From an uncultured Gammaproteobacteria bacterium (lineage in GTDB: Bacteria > Patescibacteriota > Patescibacteriia > Magasanikbacterales > GWA2-37-8), in the NCBI GenBank assembly GCA_964514995.1, contig CAZETA010000002.1, positions 10,530-74,529 of the forward strand: a stretch of DNA of 64,000 bases, read 5' to 3'. The notes below the pieces were generated by a model. That model was not told the origin of the DNA. It saw only the letters and a program-made list of their open reading frames with translations, and made no database searches. A program made the translations under genes and the position numbers. How positions within the stretch are numbered: the stretch's first letter is position 1; every line of letters begins with the position of its first letter. Shown here one piece after another: positions 6,160 to 24,626 of this stretch.

Positions 6160-6414
6160 TCTGTTAGTCGGGATTGTGGGACGAAGTTGGAACATATTTA
6201 TTCCAACATTAATCTGTGTCAGATACTATACCAGCGCATTAAATTTTTGTAAACAAAAAGACCTCCGTAATATTTACAAAGGCCTTTATGTTGAATTTAT
6301 CAAGGCTACTCTCGTTATGGCTTTAGATAGCTAAAACGATAACGAGATGGAATAGCCTTGATGAGCGCAACCCCAGAGCTCGCCAGCCGAAGCCGGAAGA
6401 TCGGGGTCGCCCGC

Positions 6415-6873
6415 CTAGAACAGGTCGAGGTCGCCGAGCTCGAGCACCCGGACCTGCGCGGGCTTCTCGCGGACGAGGTACGCGTCGTAGTTGCGGACGC
6501 GGTTCTTGTCCTTGGAGAAGAGGGTCGCGAGGTGCCACGTCTCGTCGCCGATCTGGATCGAGCCGTCCTCGTTCACCTTGACCTCGGTGCCCTTCTTCTT
6601 GGCGTTGGTGAGCGACAGCCGCGGGCCGTCCTTGCAGACGATGCCCGAGATCTTCTCCGCCGGCATGACCACCTCGCCCTTGACGTTGACGTAGGTGAGG
6701 TTGGTCGGCACGGCGAACGCGAGGTCCGGCTCCGGCGTGATGATCGGCTCGCCGTACTGGCCGGGGCTGACCATGTAGTACTGCCGCTCGCCGTTCGGAC
6801 CCAGGTTCAGGATCTTGTACTCGCCGGTCGTCTCGTCGATCTCCACCGTCCACTGCTTGTTCGTCGCCTGCAT
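6415..6873 (-). CDS. Hypothetical protein encoded in a ~65% GC foreign-looking island (about 152 aa)
   Basis: Protein-like translation (MQATNKQWTVEIDETTGEYKILNLGPNGERQYYMVSPGQYGEP...) with extreme GC3 codon bias. GGAGG RBS 7 nt upstream of the ATG. The two overlapping long ORFs in this island are Arg/Ala-rich antisense artefacts. Confidence 0.5.
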   Translation of the reverse strand: MQATNKQWTVEIDETTGEYKILNLGPNGERQYYMVSPGQYGEPIITPEPDLAFAVPTNLTYVNVKGEVVMPAEKISGIVCKDGPRLSLTNAKKKGTEVKVNEDGSIQIGDETWHLATLFSKDKNRVRNYDAYLVREKPAQVRVLELGDLDLF

Positions 6874-7107
6874 CGCAGACCTCCAGGATGCCCGAACTTG
6901 TCGGGCGTGTGGTGCCTTACCTAAACGGACCGCCCGTTTTTGGTTTGGCAGAGTTGCTACGCGTCCTCCTTGAAGGGCGCGCACGCCAGTATAATCGTAA
7001 AATTACCATTATACAGGCGTATAAGACAACAAAATACTATACTATAATTTATAGCTTTTGTCAATGAAAATGCTTGGAATTATTTTAAATACTTATTAAA
7101 GTAGCTA

Positions 7108-9939: not shown

Positions 9940-10248
9940 ATAACGTAAAGTTAAATAAATAATAAATTAAAAACAAAAACGGCCCCTTTATCCGGGCGGC
10001 AACCTTTCGGTCGCCCTATCACCTTTCGGTGAAAGACCACAAGTAGTACCCGGTCAAAAAGACCGTTTTCTACTTGTGGATTTGATGACCATGCCCTAGA
10101 TTTTATCTAGAGTTTAGGTCTAAATTGTCGTGATTATATTACCACGCCTTTTTAGCCTTTGCAATCTTGACTTTTAGCTATTATCCGTTCAAAATAAGCC
10201 ACATTCCTGGCCTTCCTATTATCGGTTAGTTTAACTATAAGAATACGT

Positions 10249-13388: not shown

Positions 13389-14858
13389 ATGAAATACATC
13401 GCTTATTGTCGTAAATCTACGGAATCTGAGGATAGGCAGGTTTTATCTATAGAATCACAAGCAAATGAAATGTATAAGAGTGCTGAACGTAATAATGTTG
13501 TGTTAGATAAAATTTTTACCGAAAGTATGTCGGCCAAAGCCCCGGGCCGCCCTGTATTTAAAGAAGTGATGGCCTATATTGAAAAAAATGGTCCTTGTAT
13601 TCTGTATGTTTGGAAATTAGATCGTCTGGCCCGGAATGCTTTTGAAGCCGGTCAGATTTCGTGGTTCATGGATAGGAAATTAATTATTGAAATTCGTACG
13701 TTTGAAAAAGTATATAAAAATATTTCTGACGATAAATTTTTCATGAGTTTGGATTTTGGTATTGCGAAAAAATATGTTGATGATTTAAGTACTAATGTAA
13801 AGCGGGGGATACGAACAAAAATAGAAAAGGGCGGTTGGCCGAGTAAAGCTCCATTTGGATATGTAAACGATAGAGGGAATAAAGTTATTTTTCCTGATTT
13901 AGTAATGGCGCCCCTTATTACGGAGATGTTTAATTTATATTCTAGCGGTGGTTGCAGTATTAAAGACCTGGTAAATATCATGTACGAAAAGGGCTTGCGT
14001 ACATTGAAGGGCTATAAGGCCAGTAAAAGCGTTTTACATCGTACTCTTACCAATCCAGTGTATTGCGGATTTATTAGGAAAGATAATAAGCTTTTTGTTG
14101 GCAATCATGTGGCGATTATTTCTAAAGATATTTTTGATAATGTCCAAGATATAATTAATGGAAAAAACAAAAGTAGAAAGCAAGTCTATAGTTTTCCGCA
14201 TCGGGGATATATGCGATGCCATGTTTGTGGATGTGCCTTAACTGGCTCACTTAAAAAGGGTCATGTGTATTACTACTGCACAAACGGCAAAGGTATTTGC
14301 CAAGAACAAAAGAAAGGGTATTTACGCTCTGAAGTAGTAGATGGCTTAATGGCTGATATTTTTGGAAGGATTGAATTTGATGAGGAAACCATTGAAATAA
14401 TGTACCTGGCTAAAAAGGAAGAAATGGCTTATGACAAGAATTATGCTGTAACTGCCATACAGAATCTTACTAAACAGGCTTCTCTGGCCCGTGAGAAGCA
14501 GGGTAAGCTGGTAGATAGTTATTTGGCTGGTAATATTCCTGAAGACCTTTATAACGCAAAAATACAGGCTCTTAATAATGAGGTGGTTGCTGCAGAGTCA
14601 CAACTCAAGAAATTACAGCAAAAGCATATTAATATTGAATCTACTTTGGAACTCACTAGAAAGAAGTTTTTATCCGCTTCTGTAGCCAAAAAAGAATTTC
14701 TTGAGCAAGATAATATAAAAAAGCGTAAAGTGCTTGGAAATGTACTTTGGAACCTCACTATTGAAAATAAGGATTTGGCTTCATATAAACTAAAAGACCC
14801 CTACCAAAGGATGGCGGAGGTCTCCAAAAACTGCACTTTTGCCGAATTGTCGGGGTAG
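13389..14858 (+). CDS. Large serine recombinase (integrase)
   Basis: N-terminal resolvase catalytic motif (YCRKSTESEDRQ...SIESQ), recombinase domain, Cys-rich zinc ribbon (CHVCGCAL...YYYCTNGKGIC) and a C-terminal coiled coil. The TAG stop overlaps the tRNA-Pro 3' end. Confidence 0.85.
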   Translation: MKYIAYCRKSTESEDRQVLSIESQANEMYKSAERNNVVLDKIFTESMSAKAPGRPVFKEVMAYIEKNGPCILYVWKLDRLARNAFEAGQISWFMDRKLIIEIRTFEKVYKNISDDKFFMSLDFGIAKKYVDDLSTNVKRGIRTKIEKGGWPSKAPFGYVNDRGNKVIFPDLVMAPLITEMFNLYSSGGCSIKDLVNIMYEKGLRTLKGYKASKSVLHRTLTNPVYCGFIRKDNKLFVGNHVAIISKDIFDNVQDIINGKNKSRKQVYSFPHRGYMRCHVCGCALTGSLKKGHVYYYCTNGKGICQEQKKGYLRSEVVDGLMADIFGRIEFDEETIEIMYLAKKEEMAYDKNYAVTAIQNLTKQASLAREKQGKLVDSYLAGNIPEDLYNAKIQALNNEVVAAESQLKKLQQKHINIESTLELTRKKFLSASVAKKEFLEQDNIKKRKVLGNVLWNLTIENKDLASYKLKDPYQRMAEVSKNCTFAELSG

Positions 14859-14923
14859 TGGGACTTGAACCCACAATCCCCTGGTCCCAAACCAGGTGCT
14901 CTAGCCAATTGAGCCATACCCCG
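14851..14923 (-). tRNA. tRNA-Pro (anticodon TGG)
   Basis: Cloverleaf by eye: acceptor CGGGGTA/TACCCCG, anticodon stem CCTGG/CCAGG with loop TTTGGGA, T-arm GGGTTCAAGTCCC. Confidence 0.85.
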
Positions 14924-14972
14924 TATTTTGTTTGTGGCACGCTTAGCGTGCCAGCCACAACGCTCAGCGTTG

Positions 14973-15044
14973 TGCCGCGGGTCAGAATTGAACTGACGAC
15001 GCCAGCCTCTTCAGGGCTGCGCTCTACCACTGAGCTACCACGGC
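14973..15044 (-). tRNA. tRNA-Phe (anticodon GAA)
   Basis: Acceptor GCCGTGG/CCGCGGC, D-arm TAGCTCAGTGGTAGAGC, anticodon loop CTGAAGA, T-arm GTCAGTTCAATTCTGAC. Confidence 0.85.
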
Positions 15045-15049
15045 GTTTG

Positions 15050-15123
15050 TGGACCCTATCGGGCTCGAACCGATCACCCCCGCGTTGCAAACGCGGTGCT
15101 CTACCAAATGAGCTAAGGGCCCT
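15050..15123 (-). tRNA. tRNA-Ala (anticodon TGC), with G3:U70
   Basis: Acceptor GGGCCCT/AGGGTCC includes the G3-U70 identity pair; anticodon loop TTTGCAA; T-arm ATCGGTTCGAGCCCGAT. Confidence 0.85.
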
Positions 15124-17514: not shown

Positions 17515-19848
17515 CTACGCAAAGTTTTGGTTGTCTGTTTTTTCCGGCTCATCAAAAACCGGTGCGCCGCCTGAGTTCATGGTCTGTTCATTTGCCGGCA
17601 TTTCTTCTTCGGCGTCAGGTCGCATATGTTCGGTAAACACTTCTCTTGGTTTGGCGCCGTCTGCTGGACCTACTATACCAGCTTCCTCCATTTCGTCCAA
17701 GAGACGAGCGGCTCGGGCGTAGCCGATCTTCATTCGTCGTTGTAAGAGCGAAGCGCTCGCTTTACCTGATTCCATAACAACGTGCTTGGCCTCGTCAAAG
17801 AGCGGATCATGGTCACTGCTGGAGCCGTCAAACATATTGATAGTTCCGCCGCTCAAAGCGCTATTTTTTGAAACGATTGAATCGTCGTAGACGGGCGGTT
17901 CGTCGCCTTTCAGGTGGTCTATAACTCGTTTCATCTCCTCTTCTGAGACAAAGGCACCCTGGACGCGTTTTGGCTTAGATAGTTCGGCGGTCAAAAACAA
18001 CATATCACCGCGGCCAAGGAGTTTTTCCGCGCCGGGACAATCTAGGATCGTGCGAGAATCGATAATAGAGGCAACGGAAAAGGCGATACGGGCTGGGATA
18101 TTTGCTTTCATGAGCCCGGTAATAACTTCCACGCTTGGTCGTTGTGTGGCGACGATGAGGTGAATACCGACAGCACGAGCCATTTGAGCTATACGGATAA
18201 TGCCGGCCTCCACTTCGCTTGCGGCCATGGCCATCAGATCAGCAAGTTCGTCAATGACAAAGACGATGTATGGTAGCGGCTCGGCGGCAGATTTGTTATA
18301 TGAGCCGATATCACGCTTGCCTGCTTCCGCAAGTACTGTAAAGCGTCTATCCATTTCGCCAATAGCCCATTTGAGCGCATTAACAGTTTTTGCAGGATCG
18401 GTGATAACTGGTGTGAGCAGGTGTGGAATGCCGTTATACGGAGTCAGCTCTACCCGTTTTGGATCAACCATGATCATACGCAACGTCTCGGCGGTATTTT
18501 GATAGAGTAGACTCAAGATCACAGTATTAATACACACTGTTTTTCCTGAACCGGTCGAACCGGCAATCAGTAGATGCGGCATTTTCAAAATATCGCCAAA
18601 CCAGACTTTGCCAGCCACGTCTTTACCGAGCGCAATCATCATGTTGTGTTTGTCAGGATTTTTGAATTCAGGACTCTCTAATAGCTCGCGCAGGGTTACC
18701 ATAGCCACTTTCTGATTTGGGACTTCGATACCCACGAGCGCCTGGCCGGGAATCGGAGCCTCGATACGAATTGGGTGTGCAGCCAATGCTAGCGCCAAGT
18801 CGTTGCCCAAAGCGGTAATGCGAGTTAGTTTGACGCCTTTGGCTGGTTTTAAGGAATACTGTGTTACGGTGGGTCCAACCCGAACCTCGCCCATCTCTAC
18901 TTCGATACCAAAGTTTTGGAATGTGTCTCTGATTACTTCGGCATTGCTTTTGATATCGCCGGAAGTTGGTTTGCTTTTAGAGGTAAATAGCAGATCTACT
19001 GGCGGCAAGTCGCGGATGATTGGCTTGGGCGGTTCGGTCATGGCCGGCGCGGTGGCGACAGTGGTGTTTGTGACATCGGCTTCCTCTTCGGTATTTTCTT
19101 CAACCTCTTTGTTCGCGAGATGACGCTGCTGGAACACTCGTTCTTCTTCGCCGTCCTCCTCCTCCTCATCCTCGTCTTCTTCCTCGCCAGTTTGGTAATC
19201 ACCCTTAATATTAAAGGCGACTGTCGAGGCTTCCTTTTTAAATGATCCAAAAAAAGCAATAATTCTTTGACCAAACCAGCCTAATACGCCAAAAAATTTT
19301 TTATGCAGCTCTACGATCTGTGCAAGTGAGGTATTAAATAAAAAGATAATGCCAATGAGTAGGAATGCGATCAAGACCATGGTCGCGCCCCAGGCACCAA
19401 CATATATTTTGAGCGGCCAGGAGAGTAGGAGTCCGACAAGACCGCCGCCAAACCCTTGTTGGGCATCAAGAAGCATCTGTTCTATCGGTCTTTGGAGATG
19501 GATTAGGCCGTTGAAACCAAGAATAAACAAAATTGATCCGATCCAATGAGTCGGACGATATTCATACTCAAGGTCCTTGACCATGAGAATTGCCACAAGA
19601 ATGATGATAATGGGAAATATATAGCGCACTTGGCCAAAGGTGATGGCAAGCAGCGAATCGATAAATTGACCGGCCACTCCGGCCATAGAAAAGAAACTAA
19701 GCGCTGATAATCCGCCGACGATAAATAAAAAAATAGCTAGCAGTCCGCGTCCGATATCAGGATTGAGATTGATGCGTTCGCCTAAGCTTGGTTTGCGAGT
19801 TTTGTGTCTTCCCATATGATTTAACGAAATCATGTCGAGTAACGTCAT
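17515..19848 (-). CDS. ftsK: DNA translocase FtsK/SpoIIIE
   Basis: N-terminal TM helices, acidic linker, Walker A (GSTGSGKTV) and a C-terminal gamma domain (LLQRRMKIGYARAARLLDEME). Confidence 0.9.
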   Translation of the reverse strand: MTLLDMISLNHMGRHKTRKPSLGERINLNPDIGRGLLAIFLFIVGGLSALSFFSMAGVAGQFIDSLLAITFGQVRYIFPIIIILVAILMVKDLEYEYRPTHWIGSILFILGFNGLIHLQRPIEQMLLDAQQGFGGGLVGLLLSWPLKIYVGAWGATMVLIAFLLIGIIFLFNTSLAQIVELHKKFFGVLGWFGQRIIAFFGSFKKEASTVAFNIKGDYQTGEEEDEDEEEEDGEEERVFQQRHLANKEVEENTEEEADVTNTTVATAPAMTEPPKPIIRDLPPVDLLFTSKSKPTSGDIKSNAEVIRDTFQNFGIEVEMGEVRVGPTVTQYSLKPAKGVKLTRITALGNDLALALAAHPIRIEAPIPGQALVGIEVPNQKVAMVTLRELLESPEFKNPDKHNMMIALGKDVAGKVWFGDILKMPHLLIAGSTGSGKTVCINTVILSLLYQNTAETLRMIMVDPKRVELTPYNGIPHLLTPVITDPAKTVNALKWAIGEMDRRFTVLAEAGKRDIGSYNKSAAEPLPYIVFVIDELADLMAMAASEVEAGIIRIAQMARAVGIHLIVATQRPSVEVITGLMKANIPARIAFSVASIIDSRTILDCPGAEKLLGRGDMLFLTAELSKPKRVQGAFVSEEEMKRVIDHLKGDEPPVYDDSIVSKNSALSGGTINMFDGSSSDHDPLFDEAKHVVMESGKASASLLQRRMKIGYARAARLLDEMEEAGIVGPADGAKPREVFTEHMRPDAEEEMPANEQTMNSGGAPVFDEPEKTDNQNFA

Positions 19849-19920
19849 TTGAAACTCGGCGCCGGTGCCTATTGTAGCACAAATGACTATTCAGAGAAAG
19901 AATTTATAACTAAAACCCCG

Positions 19921-19957
19921 CATCAGAAAGACGCGGGGTTGTTTTTTCTGCAAAAAG
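19921..19957. terminator. Bidirectional rho-independent terminator-like hairpin (CCCCGC-11nt-GCGGGG) with A-run/T-run flanks
   Basis: Lies just outside the ftsK start, in the long ftsK-rpoB intergenic region. Confidence 0.45.
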
Positions 19958-20329
19958 CTGCGACAAGAATTGCATGTTTTAACTAACGGATCAAATTTAG
20001 AAAACTTTCTTTGAACAAAGAAATGTTCAAGAGAAAAGAGAGAGATTTGTTTAATAAATCCGATCTGGTTGAGACATCAACTCTTGCGCAACTTGCTGAA
20101 GAAAATTTTTTTAAAAAAAATTATGAATCTATTTTATAGTGAAAAAATATTTTGTCAAGGATGAATAATTATTTTTTGTAAAATTATCTTTCCTAAATTT
20201 TTGTCTGTATTTTATATGGATGAAGATTTTTATATACAGTTGACGACGTAATAAAAATTTGCTAAATTTTTTAGTTAGATTGCCGAGTTAGGTTGGTGCT
20301 ACTGCTGTAGACATTTATTTAAGTGTATA

Positions 20330-20690
20330 GAGCGGTAACACCGACCATGGGGATGGTCGGTGAGTATGGCGGCCTCCAAAATCCAGGAGGCTCTTCTCGT
20401 CGGGGGTATCTAGCCAATGCCGAACCAGACTGCGAAGAGAGGCGGTCGTCAAGATCGCAAGCAAGCGCGCCACAGGGCGCGTGAACAAGGCCAGGAGGCC
20501 CGACGGGCCCGACGGGCCCGACAGCGGGCACAGCGGGCCGCTGGCGGCCACTCGGCCACCAACAAGGAGGTGGCCACCCTGCCGCCGTCCGAGCCGAACT
20601 ACGGCCCGGACGATCGCTAGCACCGGCTTCGCGCCAGTGCCGCGGAAAGGAGCTGCCCGAGGGCTCCAGTCGTGACTATGGGTAGAAAAA
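20330..20690. other. GC-rich (~65%) anomalous segment in the AT-rich ftsK-rpoB intergenic region, with tandem GCCCGACGG repeats; possible small basic ORF 20417-20620 (+)
   Basis: Abrupt compositional shift. The ORF has GC3-biased codons and a G-run RBS-like (GGGGG) about 10 nt upstream. No conserved RNase P/tmRNA/SRP motifs found. Confidence 0.4.
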
Positions 20691-21179
20691 TTCTATTTAT
20701 AGCCACGGAGCTCTCAGAATATTGTATAAAAACATGCCACGAAAGTGGCTGTTTTTTATTCTTAGAGAACTATACTTCGGATATTCTGTGGATAAAAATG
20801 TATAAAATAATGAAACTGAGCATGTTTTTTATCTAAAATTAGGCAAATAAACATATTTTCTTGACAAAAGTTATCCAATTTTAATTGCTTGACATTACTA
20901 TATAATTAGCGTAGTATGTAGATACTTGAATACTTCTAGAAAGAGAGAGACCAAGTTTTTAGCTTAAACTAGCGCAAAAGTAGTCCTGCCTTTGGTAAAA
21001 GACGGGGCGAAGCCTTGCAAGGAATAAAAATTTTTACATGCCGGCCTTGCTTTTATTAGCTAACCTTTAAGAAAAAAGTGACCAAACGCCCTCAAGGCGC
21101 CGTTTTTTGTTTCTGGACGTTGCCGAAAAATTCCTTTCCATTTTAATTTGTTAATTGCTAACTGTTAATAAATCAACAT

Positions 21180-24100
21180 ATGCCAATCTTCAAGCGTCAG
21201 GCCCTCAAGACAAAAGAACGACAATTTTTTACGAGCATTCGTGATGCTATGCCCGTACCGGATTTGATCGATGTGCAGAAAAGTTCGTATGATTGGTTTT
21301 TAAAATTCGGCATTAAGGATCTTTTTGAAGAAGTTTCTCCGATGACTGACTTTACCGGCCGTGATTTGGAGTTATATTTGGAAAATTATTATTTGGATGA
21401 ACCGAAATTTGATGAGGTGGTTTGTCGCGAACGAAATTTGACTTTTGAAGCGCCATTACGTGTAACAGCTCGGCTCGTCAACAAACGTACCGGACAAACC
21501 AAATCTCAGGAAATTTATTTGGGAGATATTCCGCTCATGACCCAACGCGGTACTTTTATTGTTAATGGTATTGAGCGAGTAGTGGTTTCTCAGCTTATCC
21601 GTTCTGCGGGTGCGTTCTTTACAGCTGAGAATATTCGCGGACGTCGGTATTATGGCGCAAAGATTATCCCAAATCGCGGCGCTTGGATAGAAATTGAAAC
21701 TGACATGAATAATGTGGTGTGGATCAAGGTTGATCGTAAGCGTAAAATGGCTGCGACATCGCTTCTGCGTGCGTTTGGATATGAAGATGATGCAAAAATT
21801 ATTGACTCGTTTAAGAGTGTGAATAATCATCCAACTGTTGATTATATTGACGCTACGATAAAAAAAGATGTTGCTAAGAATCAGGAGGAAGGGCTTATTG
21901 AAGTCTACAAGAGAATTCGTCCCGGAGATTTGGCGACCGCAGATAATGCCAAGAGCTTGATCTTTGCCATGTTTTTCAATTTTGATCGGTATGATTTAGG
22001 CAGGGTCGGTGTCTATAAATTTAACACCAAGTTTGATCTGGGGTACAAAGACAATGATTATGATAAAAAAGAAAATAGAGTTTTGTCTCCGGAAAAATTA
22101 TTGGCTGTGCTTAAAGAGGTTATCCGTCTCAATGTGACTCAAGAAGAGCCTGATGATATTGATCATCTTGGCAATCGTCGTATTCGTGCGGTAGGTGAAC
22201 TGGCACAAAATAGATTCCGTGTCGGACTTGCTCGTATGGAGCGTATTGTCAAAGATCGCATGAGTACTCAGGATATGGAAGCACTTTCTCCAAACAAACT
22301 TGTTAATGCCCGGCCGGTTATTTCAGCTATCCGTGAATTTTTCATGAGTTCGCAGCTTTCACAGTTCATGGATCAGACCAATCCGTTGTCTGAACTTGAG
22401 CATAAGCGTCGTGTCAGTGCTTTGGGTCCGGGCGGTTTGTCTCGTGATCGAGCCGGCTTTGAAGTTCGTGATGTGCACACTACTCATTATGGTCGTATTT
22501 GTCCGATTGCTACTCCGGAAGGTCCGAACATCGGTTTGGTAAACCATTTGTCTAGCTTTGCTCGAGTAAATGAGTTTGGATTTATTGAAACTCCATATCG
22601 CAAGGTGCTTAAGTCAGTGACTAATGATCCAAAATTCACGGAAGGCGAAATTTTGCTAGACGAAGTTGAAGGTATTAAAGCAGGCACAAAAATTACCAAA
22701 GATTTGGCGACGAAGCTTGCTAAGGTAAAGATGAAAGAAATTCCGGTGCGTCCACGCGTGACCAATGAAATTGTTTTCTTAAATGCTTTTAAAGAAGAAA
22801 AAGCCAAAACAGCCTCTGCCACTACCCAGATAGATGCGGATGGGTATTTTGTTCAAGAAACTGTGCCGGCCCGTATTCATGGTATTCCGGGTGTAGGCAG
22901 GACTAGTGAACTTGAATATGTTGACGTGGCTTCAAATCAAATTATTAGTATCGCTACTTCCTGTATTCCATTTTTGGAACATGACGACGCCACTCGCGCG
23001 CTCATGGGTACAAACATGCAACGTCAGGCAGTACCGTGCATCAAGCCACAGCCGCCGCTTGTAGGTACAGGTACGGAAGAAAGTGCCGCCTATTATTCGG
23101 GCTATATTATTTTGTCTGAAGTTGATGGGGAAGTGGCTGAGGTTGATGGGAACCATATTGTCATAGTTGATAAAAAAGATGTAAGACATACCTACTATTT
23201 GAATAAATTTGTCCGATCTAACCATTCAACTTGCGTAAATCAAACGCCGATAGTGAAGTTGGGAGAGAAGGTGAAGAAAGGTCAGGGACTCACCGATGGT
23301 CCGGGCATCAAAGACGGCGAACTCTCGCTTGGTCAGAATATGCTCGTGGCCTATATGGTCTGGGACGGGTATAACTATGAAGACGCGATTATCGTCTCCG
23401 AACGTGTTGTGCAGGGTGATAATTTTACCTCTATTCATATCGAGGATTATGTCATTGATGTCCGCGAAACAAAATTAGGTCCGGAAATCATTACTGCCGA
23501 TATCCCGAACGTCAGCGAGGAAAAATTAAAAAATTTGGATAGCGAAGGCATTGTGCGTATTGGAGCGGAAGTAAAATCCGGCGACATTTTGGTTGGTAAG
23601 ATTACACCAAAAGGCGAAACAGAACTTTCTGCCGAAGAGAGATTGCTTCGCGCTATCTTTGGTGAAAAAGCTCGTGATGTCCGTGATTCTTCTTTGTATC
23701 TTGAACACGGTGAACATGGCCGTGTAATTGGTATTAAAATATTTTCTACAGAAAATGGCGACAAATTGCAGCCGGGAGTTATCAAGCAAGTTCAAGTGCG
23801 TGTAGCTGATCAAAGAAAGATTCAGGTTGGAGACAAGATGGCCGGTCGTCATGGCAATAAAGGTGTTATCTCGCGCGTCGTGCCTGCAGAAGATATGCCA
23901 TTTTTGGCTGACGGCACTCCTGTTGATATTATCTTGTCCCCGCTTGGTGTTATTTCTCGTATGAACCTCGGACAGCTTTTAGAAACTCATTTGGGCTTAG
24001 CCGCTAACGCACTTGGTTATAAGGTTGCTACTCCGGTATTAAATGGTATTACCGAAGCACAGATCAAAGAAGAATTAGCCAAAGCCGGCCTGCCGACAAG

Positions 24101-24626
24101 CGGTCAGGTAACTCTGTATGATGGCCGTACCGGTGAACCATATGACCATAAAGTAACTGTTGGCTATAATTATATGCTTAAACTAAACCACATGGTTGAG
24201 GATAAGATCCATCAACGCTCAATTGGTCCGTATAGTTTGATTACCCAGCAGCCATTGGGCGGTAAGGCGCAGTTCGGTGGCCAGCGTTTCGGGGAAATGG
24301 AAGTTTGGGCGCTTGAAGCATATGGCGCGGCACATACCTTGCAGGAGATTTTGACCATTAAATCCGATGATGTCCCAGGACGTTCGAAAGCGTATGAAGC
24401 TATAATTAAGGGTGAGCCGATCAGCAAAGTTAACTTACCTGAATCATTTAATGTTTTGGTAAGAGAATTAAAAGGTTTGGCGTTGGACGTGGAATTATTG
24501 CAAAAAAACGAATCAGGCGATTTTAATCCGATGCCAGACAGCAAGGCACAAAAGGAAATCAACGATAACAGGTCGACCAGTGAAGAAGAAAGTCAGGCCA
24601 GTGGCCGAAGACAAGCCGATAAATAA
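21180..24626 (+). CDS. rpoB: DNA-directed RNA polymerase beta subunit
   Basis: Full-length RpoB with conserved blocks (e.g. [21 protein letters not shown]). Confidence 0.97.

Follow-up and report, generated by a model that had tools for sequence, protein, structure and literature searches.

We confirmed that a block of GC-rich DNA lies between ftsK and rpoB in the window, by which we mean the whole stretch of 64,000 nt that was analysed. Comparison with an orthologous locus suggests that this block is the body of a self-contained monocistronic mRNA of ~485 nt that is translated into a small arginine-rich peptide, a reading to which we give a probability of roughly 0.6. The proposed unit would run from an extended -10 promoter through a leader, a G-run, an ATG at 20417, a 67-codon open reading frame (ORF67) and a 3′ hairpin to an intrinsic terminator (Table 1), and its length follows from the positions of the promoter, with its predicted start, and of the terminator. 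The unit is a new and very small family, although as an orphan small basic gene with structured UTRs it belongs to a kind already known; we found no earlier description of it in the literature searched. The direct importance of such a lineage-restricted orphan unit with two known copies is modest. More notable than the unit itself are two points described below, a synonymous GC bias that is conserved and the organisation of the ftsK-rpoB spacer.

Composition and context of the GC-rich block

GC content is 0.668 over positions 20330-20690, compared with 0.304 in the left flank (19849-20329) and 0.329 in the right flank (20691-21179); the block of ~65% GC with abrupt borders reported in the initial annotation is thus measured at 66.8% against 30-33%. 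Among 361-nt windows taken across the 64 kb (mean GC 0.419, sd 0.049) the maximum of 0.670 falls at 20322-20325. The block, ~5 sd over the mean, is effectively the top 361-nt window and is tied only with an island at ~6.4 kb, which, as had been stated, it resembles in composition and not in sequence. Inside the block, 100-nt windows reach a GC content of 0.76-0.78. The surroundings, an intergenic region of 1331 bp, had been described as AT-rich and non-coding. They are AT-rich, but the description fits only in part, as a small RNA on the minus strand and an rpoB leader, both conserved, are also found in them.

The GC excess would have several sources: a product rich in Arg, Ala, Gly and Pro, codons ending in G or C and in-frame expansion of 9-nt repeats, alongside the GC-rich stems of the UTRs. 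The DNA of ORF67 is 72% GC. The same protein written in native codon usage is expected to remain at 59%, because those four residues dominate the product, and the rest of the excess is due to synonymous sites. The UTR stems stretch the island to 20339 and 20670.

Table 1. Coordinates of features in the window and, in the last row, in the orthologous contig L092.
Feature	Position	Strand	Basis or remark
Gene of the first GC island, 152 aa, GGAGG ribosome-binding site, GC3 0.99	6418-6873 (island 6360-6990)	minus	
LOOT RNA (RF03000)	9998-10120	minus	82.8 bits, gathering threshold 46.4
Three-tRNA cluster	14850-15122	minus	syntenic in L092 at 1877-2147
FtsK	17515-19848	minus	Pfam
Conserved small RNA	19910-20124	minus	promoter 20131-20158, TTGACA-16-TAAAAT, 11/12
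Promoter of the unit: TTGACG, 17-nt spacer, TG-extended -10 TAAATT (TGCTAAATT)	20240-20268	plus	consensus scan, 9/12 + TG
5′ leader, ~140 nt, three hairpins	20276-20416	plus	helix list; start placed from the -10 position
Hairpin A	20300-20337 (inner stem 20311-20326)	plus	helix list
Hairpin B	20339-20362	plus	helix list
Hairpin C	20372-20391	plus	helix list
Shine-Dalgarno-like GGGGG	20402-20406	plus	10 nt before the ATG; putative ribosome-binding site
ORF67 (P0001), 67 codons: MPNQTAKRGGRQDRKQARHRAREQGQEARRARRARQRAQRAAGGHSATNKEVATLPPSEPNYGPDDR	20417-20620	plus	ORF list
Tandem repeat GGCCCGACG x2.9	20497-20522	plus	Tandem Repeats Finder, 100% match
Tandem repeat ACAGCGGGC x2.0	20521-20538	plus	Tandem Repeats Finder, 100% match
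3′-UTR hairpin, 57 nt, outer stem GAGGGCUCC / GGAGCUCUC	20659-20715	plus	helix list
Inner stems of the 3′ hairpin	20672-20674/20704-20706 and 20676-20687/20691-20702	plus	helix list
Intrinsic terminator (AAAAACAUGCCACGAAAGUGGCUGUUUUU + U run)	20728-20762	plus	terminator scan and helix list
Conserved rpoB leader, ~190 nt	~20925-21112	plus	tandem promoters, TTGACA at 20861 and 20889
RpoB	21180-24626	plus	Pfam
ORF74, 74 codons	L092 8469-8693		starts at the ATG aligned to that of ORF67

The proposed transcription unit and its ortholog

The ortholog, L092, lies in a 457-kb contig from another metagenome project and has a further copy (L098) in a second Logan run. Its locus has the same order as the window (ftsK, small RNA, slot, rpoB), with FtsK 80% identical and the flanking coding DNA ~75% identical. 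Promoter, leader hairpins, an aligned ATG, an open frame, the 3′ hairpin and the terminator are all retained there. Because the site is occupied in the same way in a genome that has diverged to 80% identity in FtsK, the unit appears to be old and maintained, not a recent arrival.

In the promoter, which is found at the same place in L092, the -35 element (TTGAC..) and the TGCTAA.TT of the extended -10 element are conserved. The leader is 79% identical at the nucleotide level over 20253-20337, and the sequence of hairpin A is almost invariant. The consensus fold of the two leaders has 28 predicted pairs, one with a compensatory change, several with one-sided changes and none broken; hairpin B is only partly recovered in it and hairpin C is not predicted. 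The G-run that had been noted 10 nt upstream of the ATG is present, and its equivalent in L092 is a GGGAG 9 nt before the start; as a Shine-Dalgarno-like element the run is weak, and it lies 9-10 nt from the ATG. Downstream of the frame, the 3′ hairpin is 81% identical. None of its pairs is broken, one shows a compensatory change and three are altered on one side only; the terminator is conserved with one compensatory pair. Over the whole trailer, terminator included, four pairs are changed on both sides and 0 of 39 predicted pairs are broken.

The whole unit folds much better than shuffled controls (z -9.2). Taken by parts, z is -3.6 in the window and -4.4 in L092 for the 5′ leader, and -5.1 and -9.3 for the 3′ trailer. 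For the ORF region the values are -5.1 in the window and -0.8 in L092, so that the excess fold of the window core is absent from the ortholog. The structured RNA that the initial annotation offered as an alternative to an Arg-rich ORF is in this way borne out for the leader and the trailer, where compensatory changes are seen, but not for the GC-rich core.

Evidence for translation of the open reading frame

The 67-aa ORF of the initial annotation is present in the ORF list. Its upstream extension is blocked by a TAG in the same frame (20411-20413), which stands two codons ahead of the ATG. Both tandem repeats that had been reported were recovered, in a different register. They are in frame and encode ARRARRAR and QRAQRA, and since a period of 9 equals three codons, repeat expansions preserve the reading frame. 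By codon counts the 67 residues include 14 Arg, 3 Lys and 11 Ala, and the product is strongly cationic and has no hydrophobic segment.

Codon usage sets the frame apart from the genes around it. GC at the first, second and third codon positions is 0.78/0.61/0.76 in ORF67 and 0.65/0.54/0.78 in ORF74 of the ortholog, and the bias towards G/C-ending codons noted earlier thus holds against a GC3 of 0.40 in the long native genes of the window; the corresponding value in L092 is 0.34. Lysine is encoded by AAG in 3/3 cases in ORF67 and in 10/10 in ORF74, compared with 30% and 18% in the respective native genes. The core of ORF67 holds 45 A to 14 T, so that in a structured RNA with every position of the core paired, most of the A residues would find no U to pair with. 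Power at period 3 has a p value of 0.0015 in L092 and a marginal one of 0.079 in the window, where GC1 is about equal to GC3.

The two products are 33% identical, with K7, R8, R11, R14, K15, R18 and R22 conserved. The in-frame pair is the best of 18 same-strand frame pairs, with a local score of 63 (z 4.3, p 0.002 from residue shuffles), and it is also the best globally, with a score of 60 compared with 5-32 for the other frames. Of the 24 identical residues, 13 are encoded by different codons, and the core has no alignment between window and L092 at the DNA level, unlike the UTR modules with their 79-81% identity. The start, the frame and the length are therefore kept and the best similarity is in frame, in one ortholog. 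All family statistics rest on these two members, and the low complexity of ORF67 inflates similarity scores.

Searches for further members returned the same pair. A word-indexed search of 5.8e9 proteins, run with the single sequence and with a two-sequence profile, found only ORF67 and the L092 product, as did an exhaustive HMMER search of 1.84e9 representatives. Pfam, NCBIfam, PHROGs and PADLOC gave nothing significant for six local ORFs and the slot genes of relatives. The nhmmer search with UTR profiles added no copies among all fetched loci and the window.

We conclude that ORF67 is probably translated, at the probability of about 0.6 given above, and name as grounds the in-frame similarity, the periodicity (marginal in the window), the repeat period, the GC3 bias, the AAG lysine codons, the A:T asymmetry and the core fold that is not conserved. 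The Arg-rich ORF proposed at the outset draws its support from the ortholog in the position of the start, the in-frame similarity and the period-3 signal, together with the in-frame 9-nt repeats and the GC3 bias.

Alternative explanations

The unit might instead be a structured non-coding or dual-function RNA of ~485 nt, whose hairpin modules would be the functional parts, with the core as a fast-evolving spacer and the open frame as an incidental feature. We consider this possible, if rather unlikely. The strong fold of the whole unit and of the window core fits it, as do the compensatory changes in the UTR hairpins around a core that cannot be aligned as DNA, the near invariance of hairpin A and the lack of further members of the ORF family. 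The UTRs are more conserved than the ORF, as would be expected were the RNA itself the functional part, and we estimate the chance of open frames of 67-74 codons in DNA of 65-72% GC at roughly 0.15-0.27 each, so that they are no rarity there. On the other hand, the core of L092 folds at chance level, and a predicted long-range helix of the window (20291-20299 / 20620-20628) has, by inspection, no counterpart there. In-frame similarity, the period-3 signal (marginal in the window), period-9 repeats, AAG-only lysine and a strong A>T asymmetry argue for coding in the core, and no Rfam family matches the unit.

This last result answers the Infernal scan proposed in the initial annotation, which had seen no hallmarks of RNase P, tmRNA or SRP. 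Rfam 15 (RNase P, tmRNA, SRP, 6S, riboswitches and GOLLD/ROOL/OLE/HEARO) gave no match at gathering thresholds over 20250-20770. At E<=10 the scan gave, over the unit, only two matches far below threshold: P24 on the minus strand (20.7 bits, gathering threshold 100) and FtrA on the plus strand at 20682-20756, in the 3′ trailer and terminator (19.5 bits, gathering threshold 134). RNase P, tmRNA and SRP are absent at both levels. ARAGORN predicted 0 tRNA or tmRNA genes in 19800-21300, and Rfam found only tRNAs on the L092 locus.

The rationale of searching GC-rich intergenic regions, as outlined in PMC8632094, is that structured RNAs are enriched where the long intergenic regions of an AT-rich genome contain GC-rich segments, and this enrichment also speaks for an RNA here. 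The unit is like the candidates outlined there in being a GC-rich island in an AT-rich intergenic region, with strong folding and compensatory changes in hairpins. It differs from them, as far as they are outlined in that source, in that its conserved structure is found only in the flanks and its core carries coding signatures. The case is a caution for GC-based discovery of non-coding RNAs, as the structured signal appears here to come from the UTRs of a small gene.

Recently acquired foreign DNA of high GC content, for example from an actinobacterial host or a phage, and left as a non-functional remnant of horizontal transfer, was also implied as an explanation, and we hold it to be very improbable. 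A GC content of 0.67 with sharp borders in a genome of 0.42, codon usage unlike that of the host and a slot that varies among relatives would all agree with such an origin. L092 nevertheless carries the unit at the orthologous site, with a native-looking promoter and terminator. BLASTN of the segment, as had been suggested, gave 0 matches to phage records and a single 34-bp match to plasmid records, and a search of IMG/VR with both UTR motifs of the unit and with the protein families of the two GC islands found no relative. No homolog of the protein of the other GC island is labelled as coming from a high-GC lineage, and three of the homologous genes are likewise GC3-rich in AT-rich genomes.

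A real gene on the minus strand, in the form of a 102-aa ORF at 20315-20623, is less probable still. Open minus-strand frames exist in both genomes, and the matching minus-frame pair has the second-best local score (49, z 3.9). This frame, however, is the codon-register antisense of ORF67, and its similarity is therefore inherited; globally it scores far less (5-32). A conserved promoter is missing on its right side and a terminator on its left, whereas those signals that are conserved (promoter, start context and terminator) all face along the plus strand.

An assembly chimera or binning artefact, for which composition alone would speak, is excluded for practical purposes, since a Logan per-run assembly (SRR13287419) is identical to the window over 19502-21162, both AT-rich flanks included, the ortholog with the same flanks occurs in L092 and L098, and the block is internal to its contig, between syntenic genes.

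Predicted peptide and its possible function

Our best guess is that the product of ORF67 is a polycationic peptide that binds nucleic acids. An Arg-rich helical motif is present: AlphaFold2 places residues 11-42 in a helix (pLDDT 82-87) with disordered ends, and the Arg-rich stretch reads TAKRGGRQDRKQARHRAREQ...ARRARRARQRAQRAA. An Arg/Ala helix of 32 residues is typical of polycations that bind nucleic acids, among them arginine-rich motifs (ARM) and protamine- or H1-like tails. What is conserved in such binders is the composition and not the sequence, in keeping with an identity of 33% between ORF67 and ORF74.

ARM peptides that bind RNA include the N proteins of phages lambda and P22 and HIV Rev and Tat. 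The product of ORF67 resembles them in its small size, its mostly disordered chain and its helical stretch rich in Arg, and its gene adjoins conserved RNA hairpins and lies just upstream of the terminator-containing rpoB leader. It differs from them in having no homology to N-like families in Pfam, PHROGs or NCBIfam and a non-phage context; its Arg tract is much longer, at ~32 residues, and no boxB-like target can be named for its putative binding.

Bacteria also have polycationic proteins of the protamine or histone-H1 type, such as Chlamydia Hc1, Pseudomonas AlgP and the tail of mycobacterial HupB. ORF67 shares with these a low-complexity composition rich in K, R and A, short in-frame tandem repeats and a sequence that diverges fast while composition is kept (33% identity, compared with 80% for FtsK). 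Unlike them it is much shorter (67 aa), lacks a globular DNA-binding domain and matches nothing in Pfam or NCBIfam. Small basic ribosomal proteins (bS21, bL34, bL36 etc.) gave no Pfam or NCBIfam match at E<=1, and the only PDB sequence match is to the low-complexity tail of uS17m (E 0.014).

We propose that the mRNA would be translated into a polycationic peptide in which residues 11-42 form one long Arg/Ala helix between disordered ends, and that by analogy with ARM or protamine/H1-like peptides it would act by binding nucleic acids. Since it is nearly invariant, hairpin A of the unit's own leader is a candidate recognition site, which could mean autoregulation. In addition, hairpins at both ends and a GC-rich body may slow exonucleolytic and AU-directed endonucleolytic decay of the transcript.

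We also considered a type I toxin-antitoxin pair and rejected it: the product is cationic and not hydrophobic, there is no conserved antisense promoter, and the long-range helix between the 5′ and 3′ parts is absent in L092.

The ftsK-rpoB spacer in related genomes

A metagenome scan with a 24-nt anchor motif conserved between the window and L001 collected 16 loci, of which 14 are relatives. The other two, L082 and L083, come from an unrelated organism of 63% GC and were left out; the motif occurs there once, just past an amidohydrolase-like gene, apparently by chance or as a REP-like element. By its RpoB, the genome of the window is closest to two metagenome-assembled genomes (78% and 74% identity), one of them labelled Candidatus Magasanikbacteria, and the next best matches are other Patescibacteria. 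We therefore place the window in an uncultured member of the Patescibacteria (CPR) near Magasanikbacteria. Two members of the RpoB cluster, P0003 and P0004, were examined as a closer strain and set aside, one contig being unrelated and the other holding only the interior of rpoB.

The 14 related loci share one order. After ftsK and a small RNA, both on the minus strand, come a variable slot, the CTGTGGATAA element, the promoters and leader of rpoB, and rpoB itself. The slot corresponds to 20160-20860 of the window, between the promoter of the small RNA and those of rpoB, and where it is filled by orphan ORFs these encode 68-169 aa on either strand. Only the window and L092 carry the GC-rich unit there. 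L001, the closest relative by RpoB (78%), has an unrelated 117-aa ORF; L086 and L089 have ORFs of 83 and 68 aa, L097 one of 74 aa and L085 one of 169 aa. Homologous minus-strand ORFs of 131-145 aa occupy the slot in L093, L096 and L088, and L084, L094 and L095 have nothing in it. Since the contents of the slot vary in this way among relatives, the GC-rich unit is accessory, a cassette placed where genes turn over readily. None of the slot products of relatives matches Pfam, and the four that were also run against PHROGs matched nothing there. Several slot ORFs of relatives have a higher GC3 than the host genes, among them those of L001 (0.72 and 0.53) and L085 (0.71 and 0.54). A hairpin that L001 appeared to share with the unit was not confirmed by nhmmer.

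The small RNA to the left of the slot is predicted to form a rod-like hairpin of ~165 nt (z -10.3) with an unpaired CUCUCUCUUUUCUCU tract, and its intrinsic terminator lies at 19914-19940. Its conservation extends over 14 CPR loci, with compensatory changes at 15 of 43 consensus pairs. Rfam assigns it to no family, the only match being RsaE-like at 31.7 bits against a gathering threshold of 79. It could alternatively be a cis-acting leader of ftsK.

To the right of the slot, the rpoB leader ends in a terminator-like hairpin, AAACGCCCUCAAGGCGCCGUUUUUUG, which suggests that it is an attenuator. The leader is conserved in L084-L086, L089, L094, L095 and L097. Its 5′ AGAAAGAGAGAGA is complementary to the UCUCUCUCUU tract of the small RNA, except in L001.

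The CTGTGGATAA element (= TTATCCACA), at 20788-20797 of the window, resembles a DnaA box and is found to the right of the slot in most loci; a similar DnaA-box-like TTATGCACA stands to the left of it in some (L089/L095/L097). Despite these sites an origin of replication at the slot is unlikely, because the cumulative GC skew does not turn there, and oriC was rejected. An integron cassette or transposon was likewise rejected, as the sole flanking inverted repeat (20150-20174 / 20845-20869) consists of two divergent -35 regions.

The spacer of this clade thus appears to be an organised region with a novel conserved small RNA, a variable slot and an attenuator-like, conserved rpoB leader, in which accessory small genes could be sought.

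The other GC-rich island of the window

Only two ORFs of the window exceed a GC3 of 0.75, namely ORF67 and the gene of the first GC island at ~6.4 kb. The latter is likewise monocistronic and has a promoter of its own, a GC-rich 5′ UTR whose structure is conserved, a long hairpin on the 3′ side and a terminator. For its product 54 homologs were found. Source organisms are named for four of them, all Patescibacteria/CPR (Candidatus Magasanikbacteria, Patescibacteria group) or unclassified bacterium; three other named entries read only 'hypothetical protein', and most are nameless. At three loci of homologs, in differing genomic contexts, GC3 is 0.74-0.85 compared with 0.27-0.44 in neighbouring genes, and in one homolog (L100) the UTRs have the same layout, down to a terminator and a long AU-rich hairpin on the 3′ side. 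The AlphaFold2 model of the product is all-beta and globular (pLDDT 96), and since its best PDB match has E 0.48 and TM < 0.3, the predicted fold may be new.

The two units are thus alike in being monocistronic, with their own promoter, a structured 5′ UTR, G/C-ending codons, a 3′ hairpin and a terminator. Their sequences are unrelated, and an all-beta protein of 152 aa with 54 homologs and a GC3 of 0.99 contrasts with a low-complexity helix with one homolog and a GC3 of 0.76. The homologs of the first island are GC3-rich across species, and IMG/VR contains no relative of either family. In this lineage, the anomaly in GC therefore appears to be a conserved property of particular native genes and not recent foreign DNA. 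Sharp GC islands in CPR metagenome-assembled genomes need not, then, mean contamination or foreign DNA; both islands of the window would be native conserved units with GC-rich synonymous sites.

The slowed decay proposed above could also account for the design common to both islands. It is doubtful, though conceivable, that the block is one example of a class of 'GC-armoured' monocistronic CPR orphan genes, with its peptide as an ARM-type regulator that acts on the leader hairpin. Such a class would be defined by synonymous sites kept at G/C from species to species (a GC3 of 0.74-0.99 in genomes of GC3 0.27-0.44) and by conserved long hairpins capping both ends of the transcript. If it exists, it would imply selection on mRNA composition, for example in favour of transcripts that evade AU-directed endoribonucleases or that are extremely stable in episymbionts of slow growth, or alternatively an unrecognised pool of GC-rich genes circulating among Patescibacteria.

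Two further RNA features were located in the window (Table 1): a LOOT RNA well above its gathering threshold, and a cluster of three tRNAs that forms the third-highest GC peak of the window.
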